From positions 4,320,001 to 4,384,000 of the forward strand of contig JASGJH010000001.1 in NCBI GenBank assembly GCA_047601445.1: a stretch of DNA of 64,000 nt, written 5' to 3'. The position numbers and the translations under genes were made by a program. Numbering within the stretch: the stretch's first letter is position 1; each line of letters begins with the position of its first letter. Shown here one piece after another: positions 45,489 through 62,617 of the stretch. Under the pieces are notes generated by a model that worked only from the letters and a program-made list of their open reading frames with translations, was not told the origin of the DNA and did not search any database. Origin of the DNA: Myxococcales bacterium (GTDB lineage: Bacteria; Myxococcota_A; Polyangia; Polyangiales; DASUME01).

Positions 45489-45926
45489 ATGGCCGAGATC
45501 ACCATCGTTGATGAGTTCGACGCTCTGCTGCTCCGCTACACCGTGCCGCAGGGAAGGTCCGGGCTCGCGGGCGCGGCTCTCGAGGGAGCGCAGTTGCCGG
45601 GCGCGCAGCTCGCAGGCGCAGACCTCAGCGGTGCAGATCTCTACTGGGCGTCCCTGTTTCGAGCCGATCTGCGCGGCGCCAAGCTCGACAACGCTGTGCT
45701 CTGCGGTGCGGACCTCAAGCAGGCCAATCTCGAAGGAGCGTCCCTCAAGAACGCGGACTTGGGTCTTGATCGACTCAATGGCTCTACCTCGCTCGAGGGA
45801 GCCAATCTTCGCGGCACGGACCTCCGCTGGACCAAGCTCACGGGAGCCCAATACGACGAAGCAACCCAGTTCCCTGCAGGGTTCGACCCCGCGCAAGCGG
45901 GCATGCGTCGCACGCGGAGGAGCTGA
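45489..45926 (+). CDS. Pentapeptide repeat protein
   Basis: A(D/N)LxG repeats; C-terminal [15 protein letters not shown] motif. Confidence 0.92.
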
Positions 45927-50755: not shown

Positions 50756-52087
50756 ATGGGGACCATGACGAAGGATCGGCATGCATTGCGTCTCACGCTG
50801 GCGCTCGGCCTTGCATCGCTCGCCGGTTGCGGCAGCGACGAGGGCGGGCACTCGAGCGAGAGCGATGCAGCCGACGCCGGAAGCGAGGTCGTTCTCGAGT
50901 TGTTCAGCTGGTGGAAGGCGCCGGGTGAGGCGGAGGCGCTCTCCGCTCTCATCTCCGCGCATCACGCGCGCTATCCGAACGTGTCCATCTACAACCTCGC
51001 GGTCTCCAACGAAGACGCTCCCTACGTGATGGCCGAACGCTTCGGCTTCAAATGCACAGCGAAGCGCACACTCGACACCACCGTCGACTGTCGGCGTGAC
51101 GAGAGCATCACGCCGGACCCTGTGGATCTCATGCAATGGAATCTCGGCGACGTGAAGCGCGTGTGGATTGACCAGGGCGTCAAGTTCACCGCGCTCGACG
51201 CCGTGCTCGATGAAGAGAACGTCGTCGATCAACTTCTTCCCGAAGCCCGCGAGGCCGTGACGGTAGACGGCGAGATCATCGCCCTACCCGTCGGCATCCA
51301 TCGCAACAACAACCTCATCTACAATCGGGACGTGCTCGATGTCGCCGGTGTGGACCCCGAAGGCCTCGAGACGTGGGAGGACTTTATCGCGGCCTGCGAC
51401 AAAGTTCAGACGAGCGGCAAGACCTGTCTCGCCACCGGCACCCAGGGCTGGATCATGAACATCCTGTTCGGCAATGTGGTGGCCATGACGATGGGGGCCC
51501 AGGGCTACGTCGATTACTATTCTGGGAAGAGCAGCGCCGATGACCCCAAGTTGGCCGAAGCCGTGCAGAACTTCGACCTGCTCATGCGCAAGTACGTGGG
51601 CAAGACCGCCGAGCTTCCAGGCGGATGGGACGAAGCCTGCGCGAAGCTGCAGGACGGCAAGGCTGCGTTCTACCTCCACGGCGACTGGGCTGTCGGCCTG
51701 CTCAAAGCCCGCGGCTGGGACTCCACGAACTTCGGCGTAATGGCCTCGCCCGGTAGTCAGGGCCTCTTTCTGTTCGGAGTCGATGGCTTCCTCTTGCCGG
51801 AGGGCAGCATGCACGGCGACGCAGCGCTCGAGGTGATTCGCACCTGGAGCTCGCCCGAAGCGCTGGCGGCGTTCTCGAAGGCCAAGGGGGCCACACCGCC
51901 GCGAAAGGACGTAGACCTCACCGACGACCCCCTGGCTAACGGCACTTATCAGGACCTGCTCAAGGCCGAGTACCCGCTGCCAGAGAACGACCGCGGCGTG
52001 AAGTTCGAGACCCTCGCGGAATACGTAACCGGGAAGAAGACCGTTGCCGACATCCTGACGGAGGCAAAGTCGGTCTACGCCAGGTGA
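50756..52087 (+). CDS. Carbohydrate ABC transporter substrate-binding lipoprotein (orphan)
   Basis: Lipobox LAGC, FSWW..PGEAEAL, PVGIHRNN, GKAAFYLHGDW. No permease or ATPase genes adjacent. Confidence 0.85.
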   Translation: MGTMTKDRHALRLTLALGLASLAGCGSDEGGHSSESDAADAGSEVVLELFSWWKAPGEAEALSALISAHHARYPNVSIYNLAVSNEDAPYVMAERFGFKCTAKRTLDTTVDCRRDESITPDPVDLMQWNLGDVKRVWIDQGVKFTALDAVLDEENVVDQLLPEAREAVTVDGEIIALPVGIHRNNNLIYNRDVLDVAGVDPEGLETWEDFIAACDKVQTSGKTCLATGTQGWIMNILFGNVVAMTMGAQGYVDYYSGKSSADDPKLAEAVQNFDLLMRKYVGKTAELPGGWDEACAKLQDGKAAFYLHGDWAVGLLKARGWDSTNFGVMASPGSQGLFLFGVDGFLLPEGSMHGDAALEVIRTWSSPEALAAFSKAKGATPPRKDVDLTDDPLANGTYQDLLKAEYPLPENDRGVKFETLAEYVTGKKTVADILTEAKSVYAR

Positions 52088-52121
52088 GGTCGAGGCGTTC
52101 GCGGCCAACGCGCGTCGACTC

Positions 52122-52229
52122 GACCTCCGCTGGCCCAAGCTCACGGGAGCCCAATAAGACGAAGCAACCCAGTTCCCTGCAACGTTTGATCCGGCAAGAG
52201 CGGGTATGCGTCGCGAGCGGAGGAGCTGA
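52122..52229 (+). repeat. Degenerate 108-bp direct copy of the pentapeptide gene 3' end (45819-45926), with a premature stop
   Basis: Ungapped manual alignment gives about 13 mismatches in 108 bp; TAC becomes TAA in the copy. Confidence 0.9.
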
Positions 52230-52921
52230 CCTAGTCGCTCCCAGTAGGAACTCTTCGCAGCGTAGCGAGGCAGGCGCGACGCGAATCTGCCCAACCAGTT
52301 GACCCAGCTTTCCGAATACGGACGGTCGAGAAGTTCGAGCAGCATCTCTTGGCCGCCGATCCGTTTAGGCATTTCTTCGCTGCGATGCAGACGGCATGGC
52401 TTAGGGAAGTGCTGCGAATGAGCGCAGAACTTCCTGGGACAAGCAGGCCGAACCGCAGCGACGGATCGAACGATTGACCATCCATCCGAGTCTCCTGCGA
52501 CCAAGCAATTGCGTCGACGACGTTACCGCCGGCAAGCCTTCCTGCAACAATTGCCATCACCCCCTCTTGAATGAGACGACCTCTGAGTCTGCAGAACGAC
52601 ACTTCCTCGGAGACCGCTTAGTCACTTCTTTGGCCCGCAACAACTTCCGCGCCGCCGCCAGAGATGCACGTTCATGCGACTCGTCGGAGTGGATGCTGTT
52701 TTCGTTGCTTGAGTTGCGAAGTGCTTCTTGCTTTCGTTGAGGCATCGCTATAAATGGTGACTCATGCTGACTAGCAGGAGATGTCCTTCCAGGACTGATC
52801 CCTAGGCGGGGCGCCGCACCACCAGTTCGATGGTGTCGTGTCACGCACTTCTCTCTGCACGGTCTGACGCAGTTCCAATCGATGTGCTTTGTCATCAACA
52901 GCAAACCACGGTATCGGACGC

Positions 52922-54184
52922 ATGACAGATCTGACGGAGTTCCTGGATTTGCTCGCAGGTGATCCCCGGCTGCGCTCGGAGTTCGCCGCGGCACCGGCCG
53001 CGACACTCGCGCGCGCTGGTGTGAACACCGAAGGGCTCGAGCTTCCAGAACGCATGGATCTCGGGGATCTGGAAGAGCGCCTGAGCACGCTCGCTGAGGT
53101 TAGCGAAACCAGCCCGGTTGTCGCCGCAGCGTCGAGCGGCTTGCACACGCCGGTCTGGTCGGGCGCCGCCGCAGAGACAGCAGTTCCCGAAGCCTCACGG
53201 CGCCGGTTGCGCCGCGGGCGGCCGCTTCCTGGCATACATTGTCCGTCAAGACTCGAGAGCCGCCGTGAGGACGACTCGCGGGAGGCCGACGGTTCCTCCA
53301 ACCGTGGTGTCTCTCCTTTCAGGGGCGACGGTGAGGTCAAGAATCACCGCGCGGACGCCGGCCGAAAGCCATCAAAGGTCGAGAAGACTGCGGTCACCGA
53401 GGCGACGCCGTCGCTCAAGGGCGCATCGGAGGCCCCCCTGCCGGGCGCGTGGTTCGCGACGAACGGCACCGCGATCAGTCGCGCGCTCAGCATTCGTCCG
53501 CAGGGAGTCTCGATGGTGTCCGAGGCAATCTTCGGTCAGGACGATCGGCAGCACGTCCCCGATGCTTCAGCGCCACCCTACAGCTGGTTGTGCGCGCTCG
53601 TGATCACCGCTGGCAATGGTACCCGCTGGTTCGGCACCGGCTGGCTCGCAGGGCCGCGGCTCGTCGTCACTGCCGGACATTGTGTCTTCATGCCGACGCA
53701 GGGTGGGTGGGCTCGCGAGATCACGGTTCTGCCGGGTAGAAATGGCGCTTTGACCGAGCCGCGTATCCGCGCAAGCCAGTTTCACTCCGTGGAAGGCTGG
53801 GTAGTCAATGGACGGTCCGAGGTCGACTACGGAGCCATCGTACTGCCCGAGGGCTCGCTCGCGGCTGACTGGGGCTACTTCGGCTACGGCGCGCTCGACG
53901 ATGGCGAGCTGCTTGAGTCGCTTTTCAACATAGCCGGATATCCGATCGACAAGGAGCAGGGAACGCTGTGGGCTCAGGTCAACAATCTTCTGACGCTTTC
54001 AGGGGAAGTACTGATCTACGAGAATGACACCTACGGCGGCATGAGCGGATGTCCCGTCATTCGGTGGGACGAGTTGGACTACGTAGCTGTCGGAATCCAC
54101 AACTACGGTGACCTCGTAGGCAACCGCGCAACACGCATCAATCAATCCGTCTTCGACAACATCAATTTCTGGAAGACCTTGTGA
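52922..54184 (+). CDS. V8-like glutamyl endopeptidase (S1B) with an N-terminal NHLP-leader-like domain
   Basis: Catalytic TAGHC / DYG / DTYGGMSG; VGIH; mature-type start E-AIFGQDDR. N-terminus FLDLLAGDPRLRSEFAAAPAATLARAGV. No signal peptide. Confidence 0.85.
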   Translation: MTDLTEFLDLLAGDPRLRSEFAAAPAATLARAGVNTEGLELPERMDLGDLEERLSTLAEVSETSPVVAAASSGLHTPVWSGAAAETAVPEASRRRLRRGRPLPGIHCPSRLESRREDDSREADGSSNRGVSPFRGDGEVKNHRADAGRKPSKVEKTAVTEATPSLKGASEAPLPGAWFATNGTAISRALSIRPQGVSMVSEAIFGQDDRQHVPDASAPPYSWLCALVITAGNGTRWFGTGWLAGPRLVVTAGHCVFMPTQGGWAREITVLPGRNGALTEPRIRASQFHSVEGWVVNGRSEVDYGAIVLPEGSLAADWGYFGYGALDDGELLESLFNIAGYPIDKEQGTLWAQVNNLLTLSGEVLIYENDTYGGMSGCPVIRWDELDYVAVGIHNYGDLVGNRATRINQSVFDNINFWKTL

Positions 54185-54197
54185 CAAGGAGCGGCCT

Positions 54198-55040
54198 GTG
54201 AACATTTACATTTGGGATGACGACACCACCGCAACCTCCACGCCCGAAGCTGGCTCGCTCAAAGCCACGCCCAACAGCGCGATGGCGACTGTCGCAGGCA
54301 CGATCGCCCGCCCAGGAGGGAGCGCAGCGTTCCTCGACATCCACTACCACGGAAAGGAAGGCATCTCCTCGCTGCCCTCGGCCACTGGTGCGGTCGCACG
54401 CCCGGGAGGCAGCGCGGCGTTCCTCGACATCCACTACCACGGAAAGGAAGGCATCTCCTCGCTGCCTGCGGCTGCGGCACGCCCAGAGGCCGGCGCAGCA
54501 GTCTCTGCCAGCAGCCTGGGCCGCGCAGCGGTCGCTGCACCGATACGCCCGGGAGGCAGCGCGGCGTTCCTCGACATCCACTACCACGGAAAGGAAGGCA
54601 TCTCCTCGCTGCCCTCGGCCACTGGTGCGGTCGCACGCCCGGGAGGCAGCGCGGCGTTCCTCGACATCCACTACCACGGAAAGGAAGGCATCTCCTCGCT
54701 GCCTGCGGCTACGGCACGCCCAGAGGCCGGCGCAGCAGTCTCTGCCAGCAGCCTGGGCCGCGCAGCGGTCGCTGCACCGACACGCCCGGGAGGCAGCGCG
54801 GCGTTCCTCGACATCCACTACCACGGAAAGGAAGGCATCTCCTCGCTGCCCTCGGCCACTGGTGCGGTCGCACGCCCGGGAGGCAGCGCGGCGTTCCTCG
54901 ACATCCACTACCACGGAAAGGAAGGCATCTCCTCGCTGCCTGCGGCTACGGCACGCCCAGAGGCCGGCGCGGACACCGGTGAGCCGTCCTCCGGCTCGCT
55001 ACACATCGGCGCGTCCCTCGACATTCATTTCGTGGGTTGA
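54198..55040 (+). CDS. Putative multicore RiPP precursor peptide (6 x RPGGSAAFLDIHYHGKEGISSLP)
   Basis: RBS AAGGAG at 54186-54191, GTG start 13 nt after the protease stop, stop overlapping the next gene (TTGA). Sits between the protease and three radical-SAM genes. Confidence 0.8.
   Translation: MNIYIWDDDTTATSTPEAGSLKATPNSAMATVAGTIARPGGSAAFLDIHYHGKEGISSLPSATGAVARPGGSAAFLDIHYHGKEGISSLPAAAARPEAGAAVSASSLGRAAVAAPIRPGGSAAFLDIHYHGKEGISSLPSATGAVARPGGSAAFLDIHYHGKEGISSLPAATARPEAGAAVSASSLGRAAVAAPTRPGGSAAFLDIHYHGKEGISSLPSATGAVARPGGSAAFLDIHYHGKEGISSLPAATARPEAGADTGEPSSGSLHIGASLDIHFVG
54309..54970 (+). repeat. Higher-order tandem repeat: 237-bp unit x ~2.8, each with two 69-bp cores
   Basis: Cores start at 54309, 54399, 54546, 54636, 54783 and 54873 (alternating 90/147-bp spacing) and are near-identical at DNA level. 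Confidence 0.95.
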
Positions 55041-57046
55041 TCGTGGCGGCGCCGACGATTGCGCTCGTCAGCATGCCGTTCAATGTCACCGTCATGCCGC
55101 CGATCGGGCTTGGAACCCTTAGCGCAATATTGCGTGAGGCTGGCCTGCCCTGCACGACATATCACCAGAACCTCGAGCTGCTACCGTGGCTTGGGGTGCC
55201 TCTCAATGAGGCTTCGGAGATCTTTGATGAGATCAGCTATCTGTGGGACTTCTTGCCTGGAGAATGGCTATTCTCGCCGCAGGTCTCGGCTGAACAGGAC
55301 GCCGCATACCTGCGGTCGCTCGACGAGGACGCCGGCGTGCGCCCGCAGCTCATCGAAGTTCTTGCCCAGCTGCGCAGGATCGCTCCGCATTTCATCGCGC
55401 GCTGCGCAAGCCAGATCGCTGACGCTGGGCATGACATCGTCGGCTTCACGAGCTCATTCATGCAGACCCAGCCGAGCCTCGCAGTGGCCCGGCACCTCAA
55501 GCAGCTGCGGCCGGAAGTAACGATCCTCTTTGGCGGCTCCAATGCCTTTGGGACCATGGGCCGCGCCGTGCTCGAATACTGCGATGCCATCGATGTGGTC
55601 GCCCACGGTGAAGCCGACCGCCTAATCGTCCCACTTGTGCACGCCTTGCGCGAAGGCACCAGCCTGCGGCAGCTACAAGGCATCTCCTATCGCGACGTCT
55701 CGGGCATCGTCGACCAGTCCGTCGACTCGACGCGCGTGGCGATGGACGACCTACCGGTCCCTGATTTCGATGACTACTTTTGCACTCTCGATCGGCTACG
55801 GAGAGACCATCGCCAGCCGCTGGATCTCCCGCGCTTCGTGCCCATCGAGACCGCACGCGGATGCTGGTGGGGCGAACGATCGCATTGCACCTTCTGCGGC
55901 CTCAACGCTGACCGCATGCGGTTCCGATCCAAATCGCCCGAGCGTGCGCTGCATGACTTCCGCGACCTCTACCGTCGATACGGGGTCGGCAACTTTTTCG
56001 CTGTCGACAACATCATTGATCACAAGTATTTCGACACTGTCCTCGCGAGTCTCGCCGAACAGCGTGAGCGCTTCTTCATCCACTACGAGATCAAGGCAAA
56101 CCTCTCGCGCAAGCAGGTCGAGTCGCTGTACGCAGCAGGGGTTCACAAGATCCAGCCGGGAATCGAGAGCCTGTCCACACCGGTGCTCAAGCTCATGCGC
56201 AAGGGTATCACTGCCCTGCAGAACATCCAGACGCTCCGCTGGCTCACGGAGCACGGCCTGCGGACCTCCTGGTACATGCTGTATGGCTTCCCCGGCGAGA
56301 ATCTAGCCGCGTACAAGGAGGTCGCGAATCTCCTGCCGCGCCTCACGCATATCGTACCGCCAAATGAGCTAGCGCCGGTCTACATCGAGCGCTTCAGCCC
56401 ATACCAGATGAGACCAGACCAGTACGGGATCCGGCTGACCGGTCCGGCGCGGTGGTATCGGCATGCCTTCCCCGGCATCGGTGACGATCAGCTCGCCGAG
56501 TTAGCCTATCGCTTTGAATACGAGGAGCCGGGCCGTGATCCCGCGCTCACCCGCTTCATCGAGCACGAGCTGCGGCCATTGCTGACCGCGTGGCAACGGC
56601 GCTACGCCGCTGAAGGGCCCACACTTGGCGTCATCCACGGCCCCGAAGAGTCGCTGCTGGTGCTAGGCCGCCTCACAAATCCGATTCGGGTGTTGCGGCT
56701 GGACGCACCCGTCGCTGCGGTGCTGCGGGCAGCGGATCAAATCGTCTCCGCAACGACGCTCGACAAACTCGGCGACGGCCCGGTCGGCGCAGTTAACGGT
56801 CCGATGCTTGACGAGGCTGACTACCATGTCGCGGTGCGGCGTCTCGCCGGCCGGGGCTTGTCCCTGGAAACGTCGACGCCAACGCCACTAGACCTGCGAG
56901 GCGCGGCACTGGTAGCGAAACTTGAGACACTAGGGCTTGTGTTGCAAGAGGGTAACCGAGTGCTGTCGCTTCCAATCAATTTGTCCCGCGTCGTCGAGCG
57001 CCAGAACGCGGCCGCGGTGCCGTTGGTGTCCAGTGCTGCCTACTAG
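55037..57046 (+). CDS. RiPP maturation radical-SAM C-methyltransferase (B12-dependent, class B) #1
   Basis: LVSMPF...PPIGLGTL, GEWLFS, VGFTSSFMQ, ETARGCWWGERSHCTFCGLN (CX7CX2C), IQPGIESLS. Confidence 0.92.
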   Translation: MIVAAPTIALVSMPFNVTVMPPIGLGTLSAILREAGLPCTTYHQNLELLPWLGVPLNEASEIFDEISYLWDFLPGEWLFSPQVSAEQDAAYLRSLDEDAGVRPQLIEVLAQLRRIAPHFIARCASQIADAGHDIVGFTSSFMQTQPSLAVARHLKQLRPEVTILFGGSNAFGTMGRAVLEYCDAIDVVAHGEADRLIVPLVHALREGTSLRQLQGISYRDVSGIVDQSVDSTRVAMDDLPVPDFDDYFCTLDRLRRDHRQPLDLPRFVPIETARGCWWGERSHCTFCGLNADRMRFRSKSPERALHDFRDLYRRYGVGNFFAVDNIIDHKYFDTVLASLAEQRERFFIHYEIKANLSRKQVESLYAAGVHKIQPGIESLSTPVLKLMRKGITALQNIQTLRWLTEHGLRTSWYMLYGFPGENLAAYKEVANLLPRLTHIVPPNELAPVYIERFSPYQMRPDQYGIRLTGPARWYRHAFPGIGDDQLAELAYRFEYEEPGRDPALTRFIEHELRPLLTAWQRRYAAEGPTLGVIHGPEESLLVLGRLTNPIRVLRLDAPVAAVLRAADQIVSATTLDKLGDGPVGAVNGPMLDEADYHVAVRRLAGRGLSLETSTPTPLDLRGAALVAKLETLGLVLQEGNRVLSLPINLSRVVERQNAAAVPLVSSAAY

Positions 57047-59006
57047 TGCCCATAGCCTGCGGGTCGCGCTGGTCGAGATGCCGTTCGGGCCCGTGGCATG
57101 GCCGTCGATAGGCACCTCGGTACTCAAGCCGCAGCTGGCGCGGCGCGGCCACCGCGCCGAAGTTGTGTACCTCAACCAACTCATGCTCGAGCTCCTTGGG
57201 CCGCCGGACTCGGACACGGTTGGGCGATACCAGGCTATCTCAGACGCGTTCGGTGTTCATCTCGGCGAGTGGGTATTCGCCCGTGCCGCGTTCCCCGACT
57301 GCCGAGACCAGGCGGCACTCGATGACGAGTACCTCTCGCGGCTACGGACCGGCGGTTTCGATGCGGCGACGTTGTCGGCAGCCCTCGACCTTCGCGACCG
57401 CGCTGATGAGTTTCTGACCCGATGCCTTGCCGAAGTGCCGTGGTCCGACCTCGACGTAGTCGGCTTTGCCAACTCCTACTCTCAGCTCAACGCATCGCTA
57501 GCGCTCGCGCGACTGCTGAGCATGAGCTTCCCCGCGCTGCGCCTCATCATCGGCGGCTGCGGCTGCGCCGACGTCATGGGTGTGGCCACGTTGCGCGTAT
57601 GCGAGCACCTGTGCGCCGCAGTGCTGGGCGAAGGCGACGAGATCATCGCCGACCTCGCGGAGGCGGTCGTCAGCAACGACGAGGCGCGACTGCGCGCGAT
57701 ACCGGGCATCGCGTTTCGAAGTCACACCGGCAAGATTGAGCTCGGTGCACCTCAACGCCGCGTCACGGATCTCGACGCGCTCCCGGTGCCCGACTATAGC
57801 GATTACAGCCGCAATCTTGCGCCCGCACTCCGAACGTTCCTGCCTTTCTACATTCCCGTCGAGGCATCGCGCGGCTGCTGGTGGGGTGCGAAGCACCATT
57901 GCACATTTTGCGGACTCAACCCGCAGCGCATCTCCTACGCGCGTAAGGAACCGGCCCGTTTTCTCGCCGAGATCGCGACGCTTACGGCAACCTACCAGCC
58001 GCGCCGCTTTATGGCAGTCGACAACATCATGCCGCACGACTACCACACCGCGGTCATCCCAGAGCTGACTGAAAGCTCTGGAGGAGCCGAGTTCTTCTTC
58101 GAAGTGAAAGCCAACTTTCGCCGCGAGCAGCTCGAGGCTTTCACCCGCGCCAACGTGCGACAGATCCAACCCGGCATCGAAAGCCTGCGCACCCCGGTGC
58201 TGAAGCTGATGGAAAAGGGCACGACGGCGATCGCCAACGTCTACACGCTGCGTTTGTGCGAAGACCTCGGTGTGCGTGCCCACTGGTCTATCCTCTTCGG
58301 CTTCGCTGGCGAGACCCTCGACGACTACCGTGTCTCGAGTGAGCTCACCAGGCGCATTATGCATCTGCGGCCGCCGCTGGCGCTGGTGCCGGTTGAAGTC
58401 GAGCGCTTCTCACCGATGTACCGACGACCCGCCGAGCATGGGCTCACCGGTCTACGCCCCTCGACTTGGTACTACTTCTGTCACCCCGTCTCAGCGGAGG
58501 TGCTGGCAGACTTATCCTATCGCTTCGTCGCCGACTTCGTCGGCCGTCCGGCAGAGCTATCAAGCTCCATTACTACGATGCTGGAGCCGCTCGTAGAGCG
58601 TTGGCGAGCAAGCTACGGCGACGGTGCCCAGGCCCTGTGGACGCCGGCCGGGCGGAACCACGAGGTACGGCGCCGGGTCGGTGGCGAGGAATGGCGTTAC
58701 ATTCTCGACACGGTGTGTACGGCGCTGCTCGATGAACTGGACGAGCCGCGCGGCCTACGCGCCCTTTTCCCCCAAGCCGCGACCACCCTTCACGAACCGT
58801 ATCTCGATCCCGAGTTTCTGCGTACGGCCTCGTCAGCGATGTACGAGCGCGAGGTCACTCTGCGCGCCTCTTCGAAGGTTGACGCATACCAGCAGCTCCT
58901 ACGTCACGGACTGATCGTCCAGGAAAGCGGCCACGCGGTTAGTGTCGTTTGCCGGCGGAAGCCCTCTGCGCGGCGCGAGCTGCGCGTGCTCGCCGCAGAA
59001 CCGTAA
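57033..59006 (+). CDS. RiPP maturation radical-SAM C-methyltransferase (B12-dependent, class B) #2
   Basis: LVEMPF...PSIGTSVLK, GEWVFA, EASRGCWWGAKHHCTFCGLN (CX7CX2C), IQPGIESL. GTG start at 57033 inferred from overlap with the previous stop. Confidence 0.92.
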   Translation: MLPTSAHSLRVALVEMPFGPVAWPSIGTSVLKPQLARRGHRAEVVYLNQLMLELLGPPDSDTVGRYQAISDAFGVHLGEWVFARAAFPDCRDQAALDDEYLSRLRTGGFDAATLSAALDLRDRADEFLTRCLAEVPWSDLDVVGFANSYSQLNASLALARLLSMSFPALRLIIGGCGCADVMGVATLRVCEHLCAAVLGEGDEIIADLAEAVVSNDEARLRAIPGIAFRSHTGKIELGAPQRRVTDLDALPVPDYSDYSRNLAPALRTFLPFYIPVEASRGCWWGAKHHCTFCGLNPQRISYARKEPARFLAEIATLTATYQPRRFMAVDNIMPHDYHTAVIPELTESSGGAEFFFEVKANFRREQLEAFTRANVRQIQPGIESLRTPVLKLMEKGTTAIANVYTLRLCEDLGVRAHWSILFGFAGETLDDYRVSSELTRRIMHLRPPLALVPVEVERFSPMYRRPAEHGLTGLRPSTWYYFCHPVSAEVLADLSYRFVADFVGRPAELSSSITTMLEPLVERWRASYGDGAQALWTPAGRNHEVRRRVGGEEWRYILDTVCTALLDELDEPRGLRALFPQAATTLHEPYLDPEFLRTASSAMYEREVTLRASSKVDAYQQLLRHGLIVQESGHAVSVVCRRKPSARRELRVLAAEP

Positions 59007-59020
59007 CTCAGGAGGTAACG

Positions 59021-60079
59021 ATGGAGTCCGCAGTCCTTCTCACCACGATGCGCTGCAACATTCGCTGCGAGCACTGCTCGGTCGATTCCCACCCACACAG
59101 ACAGGAGCGCCTCGATCAGGCGCGCGCCCTCTCGCTCGTCGACGGCCTCAGCCGCATTCCTGGCCTCCGCTACATCGACGTAACCGGCGGCGAACCCATG
59201 CTCCACGCTGACGACGTCATTGCCATCGCTCGCGCAGCCCGCGCCCGTGGCAAGGCCGTTCGCCTGGTCAGCAACGGGTTTTGGGCCCACACGGTCGAGC
59301 GCGCCCGGGACACGCTGGTTGCTCTCAAGAATGCCGGGGTAACGTCAGTCGGACTGTCCGTCGACGAGTGGCACCTGCCCTTCATTCCACCGTCGACGAT
59401 TCACAACTACCTCGTTGCCTGCCGCGACGTTGGTCTCCTCCCCCTCCTCTCGTGCGTAGTCGCCGCCAGCGTGGGCGACGGAGATTGGCCGGCGAAGGTG
59501 ATCGAACTGCTTGCCCGTTACGGGATCGAACGCAGTTCCTGCGTCGAGCTGTACGCCTGGAGCCAGGGGCGCGAGTCCGACGCCGACGAGCGGGATGCGC
59601 GGGCCGGCGTAGTCCTCATCAACTGGCAGTTCCTTACGGGCGAGGGCCGCGCCCGCGACCTCGGTGTCCCGTCCCAGCCCATCAATGTTGCGCCAGACGA
59701 GCCGTGCCGCATGGCCGGCCGCCTCCCAACCATCGACGAGGCCGGTCGGCTCTTCCCCTGCTGCTCGCCATGGATTTCGCGCAAAGCCCACGCCCTCGCC
59801 GTCGTTACCGGCGACGATGTGCCGAGCGCCGTCGCCGCCATGCAACGCGAGCCCCTCGTCCAGGTCATCCATCGCATCGGTCCGCGCGCCATGCTCGAAG
59901 AGCTTCGTCGTCGAGGTTGGGCCCTCCCACACAACCAATCCGGCATTTGCAACCAGTGCGGCGTCATGCTCGACGCCGTCCCGCTCGCCGTCCTTCGCGA
60001 GGTCGCCGCCGAGCTCCTCCACGCCCGCGTCACGGTTGCCCTTGGCCTCCAGCCACGCACCAACCCGCCCCGCGCCTAA
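59021..60079 (+). CDS. Radical-SAM enzyme, YydG/EpeE peptide-epimerase-like
   Basis: RBS AGGAGG; CNIRCEHC; TGGEP; LVSNGFW; SVDEWHLPFI; GRLFPCCSP; ICNQC. Confidence 0.8.
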   Translation: MESAVLLTTMRCNIRCEHCSVDSHPHRQERLDQARALSLVDGLSRIPGLRYIDVTGGEPMLHADDVIAIARAARARGKAVRLVSNGFWAHTVERARDTLVALKNAGVTSVGLSVDEWHLPFIPPSTIHNYLVACRDVGLLPLLSCVVAASVGDGDWPAKVIELLARYGIERSSCVELYAWSQGRESDADERDARAGVVLINWQFLTGEGRARDLGVPSQPINVAPDEPCRMAGRLPTIDEAGRLFPCCSPWISRKAHALAVVTGDDVPSAVAAMQREPLVQVIHRIGPRAMLEELRRRGWALPHNQSGICNQCGVMLDAVPLAVLREVAAELLHARVTVALGLQPRTNPPRA

Positions 60080-60163: not shown

Positions 60164-62617
60164 CTAGGCCCTGCGCGCTGTCGCAATCCATTGCGTGGCG
60201 TGCGGGGTCGAACCGTCGGTACACGTTGAGGCCAGCTCCTCGCGGACGCGGTAGCCACGGCGGAGCCATCGGATACTGCCGTGAAGGTATTGTCGCACGA
60301 GCGTGTGAAGAGGCTCTTCAGCCCGAGGTCGACTTCGCCTCAGCTCCACCTGCTGAAAGCCAGCGCTTTCGAGCATGCTGCGGAGAGCCCCGCTAGTCAT
60401 CCCCATCGTCTTGGTCTTCACAGACTCGCCGCAGGCTTCATAAATGGCAGCATAGGCAGGGCTGTCTTGTGTCCAGACCCCTACGACCAGCCTACCCGAT
60501 GGCTCGAGAAGGTCGTGGAGCCGTGCAAGCGCCGTCCCGGCGTGCTCGCCAAGGTGTTGGATCAGGTGCTGCGCAAAGATCACGTCGTAGCGCTGCGCGG
60601 CTTGGACCTTGAGGACGTCGTTGACAGCGTACTCAATTTTGCGAGCGCCCCTGACCTCGTGCGCAACTCGAATGGCGTCGCGACTCGAATCGAATCCGTG
60701 GATTGCAGCGGAGCGGAATTTGTCAGCTGCGACGCGTGCAACGATGCCGGAACCGCAGCCCGCGTCCAAGATATATCGGGGCTTGGAGAGGTCGGAGCAA
60801 GCGTTCAACAGCTCCCTAGCGCACGGCAGGAACAGCGACTGTACCAGGCCGGCCTCCAGGTTGCGCTCCTTCACGAGCATGCTCGCGCGGTCGCGGTGTG
60901 CGCGTTGGCGCAGCACCGTGGCGAGCGCTTCGTTTCCCGCCAGTAGTTTGGCCGTTCCTTTCAGTTGGCTTTTCGCCTGCGCACCCTTAAGCAGAGACGA
61001 GAGTGCTCGAGGCTCGGTCCTATCGCCGTTGCTCAGCCTGACTTCGACGTGGTAGTCGTCCCAGGTGAAAAGCGACACGCGAAACGGCTGCTTCTTCTCG
61101 TGGCCGCGAAGAGCACGTCGCAGGAGCTGATAGCCCGAAGAACTCCTACGCCAGTACGTGACTTCGTCGACATCATCGGGTGCGTCCGCGATCCAGAGCT
61201 TGAGCTCGCGGCAGTAAAGTCTTGCCCCATTGTGCGAGCAATCGTCGACTACCCCTCCAGCCTCGACCACGATTCGGAACGAACCAGCGGGAGCAGGAGG
61301 AATTGCCTTGTGAGCCGCCCCGGTAATTGCCTCAGCCGCTTCAGGTCGCAGGCGTTCCGACTCGAGGTCGGCCGCCCCAGCCTGGCGTTGAAGCAGCGCG
61401 CTATGCAGCTTCGGAGAATGCTTCGCAAGAGGGCTCTCACCGCCCGTGCGGCAAACTACGCGGTGAAAGGCACGCGGTATCCCTTCACCGCGGAACGTAA
61501 CGAGATAGAGCGGCCCCTCCCGTCGTGTCTGGTCGAGGAGCACCACGTGATCGGGCTCTCCCTGCTCATAGCGAAACCGGCCCCCGCTGACGCGAAGCAC
61601 CCTCCAGGCGAGGAGGCGATGCAGCGGTTGCGTCCGAAAGGACATGGGGTTGGGGGAGCGTCCACGCCAGGTCACATCGATGCCTGGCCGCAGGTTACTC
61701 TCGAGAAACTCATCCAGATCCTTCCACGACGTCTTGAGCAACCCGTACTTCTCGAAAACCAACGCGGAGCGGTCGAGGCTATGGTGTTCGTTGCCTCCTG
61801 CCTCGGCCACCTTCCATTCGAGATCCACAATCGTTGTTCTCACCGGCTCGAGAATCGAGCAGGCGTGGTCAAGGAAGGGCCCGTGATCGAAGTTGACCAA
61901 CGTCGCCCGCAAGAAGTCCACGGCGCCCCCGTCTCCATCGCCACAGATCAACAGCTTTGTATGCTTGTCCAAGGTCTCGAGCGGATGCTGCGCCAACGCG
62001 TCCATCTGCCAGTAGGACAGGCGTGGCAGCGTGGGCAAGGTGCGCTCGATTCCGAATCCGAGCGCGAGCACCACCACTTCAGGCGGTTTCGGATACTTGC
62101 CGCCAGTGAGGCCCACGAGCTCGACTTTGCCGTCCCGTGTCAGGCGAAAGTCGGTGATCTGCCGCGGCATCGCGCCCATGAGTGCTTCGTACTGCGTGAC
62201 AATCTGCGTGCGTACGTCGTGGGCGCTTCCCGCGAACCAGTTCAGGATCGGCAGGTTCGCCGAAGCCATCGTACTATGCTCCGCGGGCCATTCGACGATG
62301 CGAGGATGCAGGAATCGATGGTGGCAACCTAGCTGCAGGTGCATCGGCTCAGCCGCGCGATCGAACACCTCGACCTTGGCACCAAGCACGCGAAGAGCAG
62401 CAGCACAGGTCAACCCACCAGCACCGGATCCAATGACCCATGCGCGCTTGCCCTCGACTAACTTGGCTTCATGGAGTGCCCAGACCAGATTGAGAGCGCG
62501 GCATTGCTGCGCCGCGACATTGATGCGCGGGCGGCGCTCGCTAAAGAGGACAAAGACGTTGTCACATCCATCCACCGAGGCTTCCTGCCTGAGCCGCTCG
62601 CTGTCGCTGTCCATCAT
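60164..62617 (-). CDS. FAD/NAD(P)-binding oxidoreductase fused to a pYEATS-like domain and a class I SAM methyltransferase
   Basis: QQCRALNL, VIGSGAGG, LALGFG, CGDGDGG; middle DEVTY...FTWDDYHVEV; C-terminal ILDAGCGSG. Confidence 0.7.
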   Translation of the reverse strand: MMDSDSERLRQEASVDGCDNVFVLFSERRPRINVAAQQCRALNLVWALHEAKLVEGKRAWVIGSGAGGLTCAAALRVLGAKVEVFDRAAEPMHLQLGCHHRFLHPRIVEWPAEHSTMASANLPILNWFAGSAHDVRTQIVTQYEALMGAMPRQITDFRLTRDGKVELVGLTGGKYPKPPEVVVLALGFGIERTLPTLPRLSYWQMDALAQHPLETLDKHTKLLICGDGDGGAVDFLRATLVNFDHGPFLDHACSILEPVRTTIVDLEWKVAEAGGNEHHSLDRSALVFEKYGLLKTSWKDLDEFLESNLRPGIDVTWRGRSPNPMSFRTQPLHRLLAWRVLRVSGGRFRYEQGEPDHVVLLDQTRREGPLYLVTFRGEGIPRAFHRVVCRTGGESPLAKHSPKLHSALLQRQAGAADLESERLRPEAAEAITGAAHKAIPPAPAGSFRIVVEAGGVVDDCSHNGARLYCRELKLWIADAPDDVDEVTYWRRSSSGYQLLRRALRGHEKKQPFRVSLFTWDDYHVEVRLSNGDRTEPRALSSLLKGAQAKSQLKGTAKLLAGNEALATVLRQRAHRDRASMLVKERNLEAGLVQSLFLPCARELLNACSDLSKPRYILDAGCGSGIVARVAADKFRSAAIHGFDSSRDAIRVAHEVRGARKIEYAVNDVLKVQAAQRYDVIFAQHLIQHLGEHAGTALARLHDLLEPSGRLVVGVWTQDSPAYAAIYEACGESVKTKTMGMTSGALRSMLESAGFQQVELRRSRPRAEEPLHTLVRQYLHGSIRWLRRGYRVREELASTCTDGSTPHATQWIATARRA

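Follow-up and report, generated by a model that had tools for sequence, protein, structure and literature searches.

The window analysed here, a whole stretch of 64,000 nucleotides, carries on its forward strand five co-oriented, tightly packed genes, the second of which is a multi-repeat open reading frame (ORF; 54198..55040, GTG start, 280 aa). From its sequence and its neighbours, this ORF is probably a multi-core RiPP precursor whose repeated motif would be C-methylated and epimerised and then cut after acidic residues. The repeat itself, the family of related ORFs, the five-gene order, the enzyme families and their catalytic motifs are direct observations, and together the cassette and its precursors form a candidate new RiPP family.

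The repeat ORF and the precursor family

An earlier note on this DNA had described six identical 23-aa units separated by alternating 7-aa and 26-aa linkers, and these were found exactly as claimed. The six exact copies start at aa 38, 68, 117, 147, 196 and 226 (window positions 54309, 54399, 54546, 54636, 54783 and 54873), with linkers of 7, 26, 7, 26 and 7 aa between them, 37 aa ahead of the first and a 32-aa tail after the last. The near-identical 237-bp superunit was also recovered: Tandem Repeats Finder reports an array at 54309..54970 (+) with period 237, 2.8 copies, 98% matches and a score of 1289, the runner-up among the six tandem rows of the 64-kb window scoring 69. Between superunits 1 and 2 there are 5 mismatches in 237 bases, superunits 2 and 3 show no difference over their first 188 bases, and each of the three has its own combination of variants. 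At the DNA level units 3 and 5 are the same, as are units 2, 4 and 6, the two sets lying one silent base apart, while unit 1 holds three further silent changes, so that every DNA difference among the six units is silent in the GTG frame. Within the 12-codon motif described below, pairwise differences come to 10 synonymous and 0 non-synonymous. An RBS-like AAGGAG (54186..54191, +) lies 6 bases 5′ of the GTG, and a purine-rich site of this kind precedes the start in all six related precursor genes inspected. Both the silent changes and the homologues track the GTG frame, as the earlier note had assumed, and on these grounds the overlapping ORFs at 54217-55122 (+) and 54162-54914 (-) were dismissed. 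Matches of the ORF to Pfam CBM_56 and DUF3188 and to NCBIfam TrbL are repeat artefacts, in which no stretch passes alone. That annotation pipelines might miss the ORF did not hold, since gene callers do predict it; the label they give is hypothetical, as foreseen. The repeat is real and protein-coding, and an assembly artefact is unlikely as its source.

Relatives were collected by several routes. A protein search with the repeat ORF gave 12 (8000 candidates scored), and a profile search of 1.84 billion representatives gave 17 matches at E up to 0.001, of which 15 proved to be true members when inspected. Pattern matches were confirmed in 3 of 18 cases in a genome scan and in 6 of 165 in a metagenome scan, whereas an ESM Atlas search with the ORF gave no usable match. 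P0055 (E 1e-5) and P0056 (E 3e-4) proved to be unrelated repeat proteins and were excluded from all counts. In total, 24 sequences with 123 motif copies were examined (L019 is the L016 contig, and L020, L021 and L023 are near-identical to one another), each with 2 to 8 copies, a variation that fits a multi-core precursor. Their near-invariant unit is G-x-A-A-F-L-D-I-H-Y-H-G, which in the window lies at 54318..54353, 54408..54443, 54555..54590, 54645..54680, 54792..54827 and 54882..54917 (all +). Downstream, a C-terminal L-H-I-G element with a degenerate seventh motif (54999..55037, +) matches the usual C-terminal block of the family. The 23-aa core of the earlier note does not survive this comparison: the conserved unit is about 12 aa long, and the identity over 23 aa belongs to a homogenised DNA tract of one strain.

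A minor D-I-N-Y-G subtype makes up 15 of the 123 motif copies, contains Asn and is one residue shorter. This His-free subtype, with a C-terminal element of its own, occurs in L022, L024, P0012, P0048, P0053 and P0054, and its precursors adjoin a protease of the cassette type and, in L024, also the first methyltransferase (MT1). Another member, the 89-aa P0049, has three degenerate motifs with two Cys substitutions and is possibly decaying.

Motif positions 0 to 5 were used for picking motifs and are invariant by construction; at positions -6, -3 and -1, which were not so used, 359 between-genome pairs gave 234-264 synonymous and 0 non-synonymous differences. Judged from these codons, the motif peptide is under purifying selection. 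Within single genes of R. maris, Yoonia and Pseudophaeobacter the copies diverge at many silent sites, which indicates that the repeat architecture is old and held by selection on the peptide. Fresh amplification is seen only in the studied genome and in the metagenome contig L020 (228 bp, 98%). Across the family short spacings of 21-33 aa alternate with long ones of 37-66 aa (for example 27/62/27 and 27/49/27/49 in relatives). The history proposed earlier, a core duplicated and the dimer then amplified, is therefore right in its second step, in that the three-fold amplification of the superunit is recent as read from the DNA, but not in its first, as the 30/49 rhythm is by the same comparison the plan of the family and not a local core duplication.

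The five-gene cassette and its enzymes

The cassette runs in the order protease, repeat ORF, MT1, methyltransferase 2 (MT2) and epimerase. Its first gene (52922..54184, +) encodes the zymogen of a glutamyl-endopeptidase-like (V8/GluC type) serine protease of 420 aa, so assigned by profile, fold and triad. The protease has a trypsin fold with the triad His253/Asp302/Ser375 and, in alignment to 1p3c, Thr370 and His393 at S1-pocket positions, which we take to have the S1 role here; these residues are invariant wherever the alignment covers them. The glutamyl endopeptidase 1p3c is also the closest PDB match (E 2.6e-21 by profile, rank 1 by fold), and by the triad and the S1 Thr/His the enzyme is a predicted glutamyl endopeptidase. 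An invariant Glu201 stands just ahead of the predicted mature N-terminus, and the protease has no signal-peptide-like hydrophobic stretch.

Protease aa 1-63 (52922..53110, +) form an NHLP-leader-like four-helix domain (AlphaFold pLDDT 71-88), followed by about 135 disordered residues. TIGR04509 matches it with E 9.7e-5 and 22.4 bits against a cut-off of 34, in one of the four N-termini scanned, and TIGR03793 gave no match, though its control matched nowhere either. Further likeness is to a distant locus, L027 (L027:8701-15073, G307:C218), a conventional cluster with two NHLP-type precursors, an EpeE-like epimerase and two TIGR03975 enzymes. The block shares 35% identity over 55 aa with one of these precursors, the other having no BLAST match, and a custom profile of the domain matches both (E 4e-7 and 3e-4). 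The L027 precursors have Val/Ala/Gly-rich cores behind a Gly run, and a long conserved follower. Among the 120 listed protease homologues, 12 carry the domain, and all 12 belong to a single clade (31 of 59 rows, support 100/99) in which every cassette-linked protease is also found. The domain is missing in L020/L023, as seen from the DNA upstream, and also in P0072 and P0070, although for these two the start may have been mis-called; on these comparisons it is common, not obligatory. In the studied genome the match on the protease is the only one of its kind, and no other NHLP-like precursor for the cassette enzymes was found there. The earlier description of the precursor as leaderless thus stands for the ORF itself, which matches no leader family in NCBIfam or Pfam, but not for the cassette, whose leader-like domain sits on the upstream protease.

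Downstream of the ORF lie two B12 radical SAM C-methyltransferases of the proteusin type, both with Cx7Cx2C: MT1 (55037..57046, +, start at 55037 or 55043; TIGR03975 547 bits, cut-off 282) and MT2 (57033..59006, +, start inferred at GTG 57033; TIGR03975 472 bits). They are 33% identical to each other, and each has its own orthologue in relatives, with 47-52% identity to it and 33-37% to the other. The C-terminal domain of MT1 resembles DUF5825 (TM 0.51). The last gene (59021..60079, +) encodes an EpeE/YydG-like radical SAM enzyme, a predicted peptide epimerase on the basis of TIGR04078, its PDB match and its motifs. Its score against TIGR04078 (YydG/EpeE), 102 bits, is far under the 300-bit cut-off; the closest PDB match is EpeE (E 1.5e-36, the next family at 4e-7). 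CxxxCxxC, P-C-C-S-P and a C-terminal CxxC are all retained, the latter two align letter for letter with the EpeE chains, and both Cys of the C-C pair are invariant (18/18). The second of them is, by numbering, presumably Cys223 of EpeE. A cobalamin synthase gene is present in the studied genome.

From the literature, EpeE inverts Val and Ile with Cys223 as H-donor (PMC13012085), and epimerases of both the EpeE and the proteusin type appear active without a leader (PMC8326336). Cx7Cx2C B12 enzymes C-beta-methylate polytheonamide and bottromycin, with one residue type per enzyme in bottromycin (PMC5682303), and such an enzyme beta-methylates clavusporin (10.1101/2024.01.23.576971).

The earlier note had pointed to B12 radical SAM genes as the neighbourhood of relatives, and the complete five-gene order indeed recurs in four other loci, from Pseudophaeobacter (L016), Rhodobacter maris (L017), Yoonia (L018) and the metagenome contig L020. 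In L021-L024 the cassette is partial and the contigs end there. Five further protease/precursor sets are indicated indirectly by contigs of equal size (15136, 382814, 8500, 8113 and 11079, the agreement being three-way for 15136 and 382814), and one precursor is assigned by name to a Burkholderiaceae MAG. A search of 400 genomes from the order did not find the repeat ORF, and one of nine same-genus genomes (72-99% complete) did not find the epimerase. An epimerase profile matched one of 400 genomes of the phylum, the distant L027, and gave one further distant partial match in 300 genomes of the R. maris family. A genome scan with just the protease domain yielded 51 pattern matches with none confirmed, viral contigs yielded 50 with none confirmed, and plasmids gave no match. 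The cassette is rare and patchy among bacteria, a distribution which suggests transfer as a block.

Flanking genes differ at every locus compared, and no transporter is part of the cassette. In Pseudophaeobacter (L016:4802-8246) TonB-dependent receptor, DUF2218 and AraC genes lie just upstream, and in Yoonia (L018:16261-17661) an SBP56 gene lies downstream; neither arrangement is conserved across loci. In the window, a gene for an 817-aa fusion of a FAD/NAD-binding domain with a class I SAM methyltransferase (60164-62617, -) is convergent with the cassette, and the flanks of related loci showed no such fusion. A gene at 45489-45926, which we take to be pentapeptide-repeat-looking, seems to be partly duplicated at about 52080-52300, a short way upstream of the cassette; the overlapping-frame translations of the two match closely, and the duplication is possibly an insertion scar.

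Proposed maturation and alternative readings

In the preferred reading, the motif and not the linker would be the modified core. Phe, Leu, Asp, Ile and Tyr are the candidate residues for methylation, with MT1 and MT2 each perhaps acting on a separate one, and a hydrophobic residue of the motif may be inverted by the epimerase. The protease would activate itself after Glu201 and then cut at E-A/E-S/E-G sites, freeing motif copies, with a modified Asp or a neighbouring D-residue perhaps shielding the motif from it. The NHLP-like domain could dock the protease on the modifying enzymes or prime these in trans. The product might be a short amphipathic peptide, alternating hydrophobic residues with Asp/His, that acts at surfaces or binds metal; this is the most speculative step, and a metal role via His could not be universal, given the D-I-N-Y-G subtype without His in its motif. 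Several lines favour a multi-core RiPP: the conserved gene order, the retention of MT1 and MT2 orthologues, purifying selection on the motif, the lack of another NHLP-like precursor for the cassette enzymes in the genome, the single protease clade, and L027, where enzymes of the same trio stand beside two NHLP-type precursors. It is weakened by the lack of a transporter, the patchy NHLP-like domain and an epimerase under the YydG cut-off. A more elaborate version is tentative and less likely than not: a split RiPP in which the NHLP leader on the protease zymogen engages the methyltransferases in trans and couples activation to modification, while leaderless cores expand by tandem amplification into D-residue-containing, beta-methylated His-Tyr-His peptides.

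The linkers bear on how copies might be released. Of 93 unique linkers, 81 have an acidic residue at most six residues past the motif (46 ± 5 in shuffles, with a maximum of 62), E-[A/S/T] is found in 33 of 38 unique long linkers and 2 of 55 short ones, and an S-rich element in 19 of 38 and 0 of 55, although the linkers are related by descent and all these counts therefore overstate. P0049 and L020 were excluded from linker and cutting counts. In the studied genome K-E follows every motif, and cutting after Glu only is predicted to leave all six motifs single, in three 30-mers, two 36-mers and one 37-mer that each end just past the motif. Over 22 sequences Glu-only cutting is predicted to leave just 47 of 112 motifs single, against the release expected of a RiPP, and Glu plus Asp cutting 110 of 112, provided that the motif's own Asp is spared. 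Moreover, Lys/Arg (absent from 0 of 83 linkers) and Pro are distributed no less evenly than Asp/Glu (absent from 1 of 83), and the acidic pattern may therefore reflect nothing more than repeat homology, or else structure. The insufficiency of Glu-only cutting across the family and the equal spread of Lys/Arg and Pro weaken the multi-core RiPP reading.

The main rival, which we consider unlikely, leaves the repeat protein mostly uncut: its motifs would stack into a parallel beta-solenoid or amyloid-like sheet that bears Asp/His ladders on one face, with the radical SAM enzymes stiffening or reshaping the stack and the protease doing no more than trim the Glu-rich long linkers. In R. maris and Yoonia Glu-only cutting is predicted to leave blocks of two to three motifs, short spacings cluster at 21-33 aa, and both termini hold degenerate, cap-like motif strands. 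In the AlphaFold model every motif forms a 10-residue strand, the strands are stacked in parallel and further strands flank the stack on either side (eight of 5-10 residues and one of 4 in all; motif pLDDT about 70, pTM 0.53), an arrangement that fits an intact fold and weakens the RiPP reading, and the top fold matches of this model are parallel beta-helix and LRR stacks (Z up to 9.2, rmsd 4.3). However, the mean pLDDT of the model is 53 with half of the chain below 50, Z values of 8-9 on repeats may reflect a common arrangement, and the fold matches are generic parallel-beta stacks. The linkers, varying from about 17 to 60 aa, are long and low in complexity, the motif of the D-I-N-Y-G subtype is without His, and in the studied genome Glu follows every motif.

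Less probable still is that the motif is a recognition sequence, and that the modified part lies in the variable linkers or in the linker of the protease, which would then be a leader-core-protease fusion. The logic of conserved flanks around variable cores is established for cyanobactins (PMC10885120), the only leader-like domain of the genome sits on the protease ahead of the disordered stretch, and the E-S/A followed by the S-rich stretch provides a second conserved element in the long linkers. Against this, the linkers of the ORF and of the protease are poorly conserved in both length and sequence at a distance where the methyltransferases and epimerase are about 48% identical, and some full cassettes are without the NHLP-like domain. 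Finally, that the gene is real and its third superunit an assembly artefact, the true copy number being lower, is very hard to credit: P0047 (141 aa) and L020:1392-2045 (217 aa) are indeed one precursor exactly one 76-aa superunit apart, a disagreement between assemblies or strains that may come from strain copy-number variation or short-read collapse, but the genome forms one N-free contig of 9.5 Mb (98.7% complete), each superunit has a distinct variant set, independent higher-order repeats occur in L020 and P0004, and assembly errors tend to collapse repeats.

Significance and comparison with known systems

The motif string was not found in about 8.4 million searchable papers, nor was a link of Rhodobacter maris or of a glutamyl endopeptidase to RiPPs found in the searchable literature, though closed journals and supplements of genome-mining surveys could still list such clusters. 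If the multi-core RiPP reading is true, the cassette would define an undescribed RiPP family whose polar, repeated core is modified both by an epimerase of the epipeptide type and by two methyltransferases of the proteusin type. It would further bring a glutamyl endopeptidase into RiPP maturation, a type left unnamed in the serine-protease section of the 2023 RiPP leader-protease review, which names S8 and S9 proteases and mentions GluC as a commercial reagent (PMC10885120). It would also supply enzymes that C-methylate and epimerise a defined 12-aa target independently of a leader, as well as a natural setting in which to ask whether a leader can act in trans from another gene. Rhodobacter maris JA276, a cultured strain, carries the cassette, as does a complete Yoonia genome, which makes the reading directly testable.

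Among known systems, proteusins (poy, PoyB/PoyC) come close in that they likewise combine two Cx7Cx2C B12 methyltransferases, a radical SAM epimerase, a dedicated protease and an NHLP-type leader in one cluster. There, however, the leader is on the precursor, whereas here the NHLP-like domain is on the protease, the ORF has neither an NHLP nor a Nif11 leader, and the precursor is multi-repeat and polar. The proteusin epimerase is of the PoyD type with one cluster and an RRE (defined in general terms in PMC12710340), the one here EpeE-like with auxiliary-cluster cysteines, and PMC8326336 gives no significant homology between EpeE-type and proteusin epimerases. The proteusin protease PoyH belongs to the C1A cysteine proteases (PMC10885120), unlike the trypsin-fold serine protease of the cassette. 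The L027 epimerase is also EpeE-like and not PoyD-like (27% identity to the cassette epimerase), and L027 may be viewed as a proteusin-like cluster with the "wrong" epimerase and plausibly as the ancestral layout. Epipeptides (EpeX/EpeE, formerly YydF/YydG) provide the closest solved relative of the cassette epimerase, with P-C-C-S-P and the C-terminal CxxC in common. As described in PMC8326336 and PMC13012085, they have a single core behind a 32-aa leader, are without methyltransferases and are restricted to Bacillota; EpeP and an ABC exporter belong to them, neither of which was found in the five cassettes, and the precursor here is multi-repeat.

Clavusporins (mpc, MpcB/MpcC) share a Cx7Cx2C B12 enzyme, which beta-methylates a short alternating amphiphilic core, and the DUF5825-like C-terminus of MT1 recalls their stand-alone DUF5825. 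They are known from Actinobacteria only, with a single 39-mer precursor that has leader and follower and with no epimerase, and the stand-alone DUF5825, S9 peptidase and MFS transporter are not in the cassette. Bottromycin resembles it in having several residue-specific Cx7Cx2C methyltransferases and a precursor without a canonical leader (PMC5682303, PMC10885120), but has a single core with a follower, YcaO chemistry and other proteases, none of which is in the cassette. The likeness to cyanobactin and fungal multi-core precursors drawn by the earlier note is a limited one: several repeats per precursor and a variable copy number are indeed shared, whereas cyanobactins rely on the S8 proteases PatA/PatG and set variable cores between conserved flanks, and here no S8 protease is present, the protease has a trypsin fold and the repeated part, our presumed core, is the conserved one. 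By its sequence features, the cassette resembles a proteusin or clavusporin pathway, yet appears to lie outside the proteusins, epipeptides, clavusporins and cyanobactins alike.
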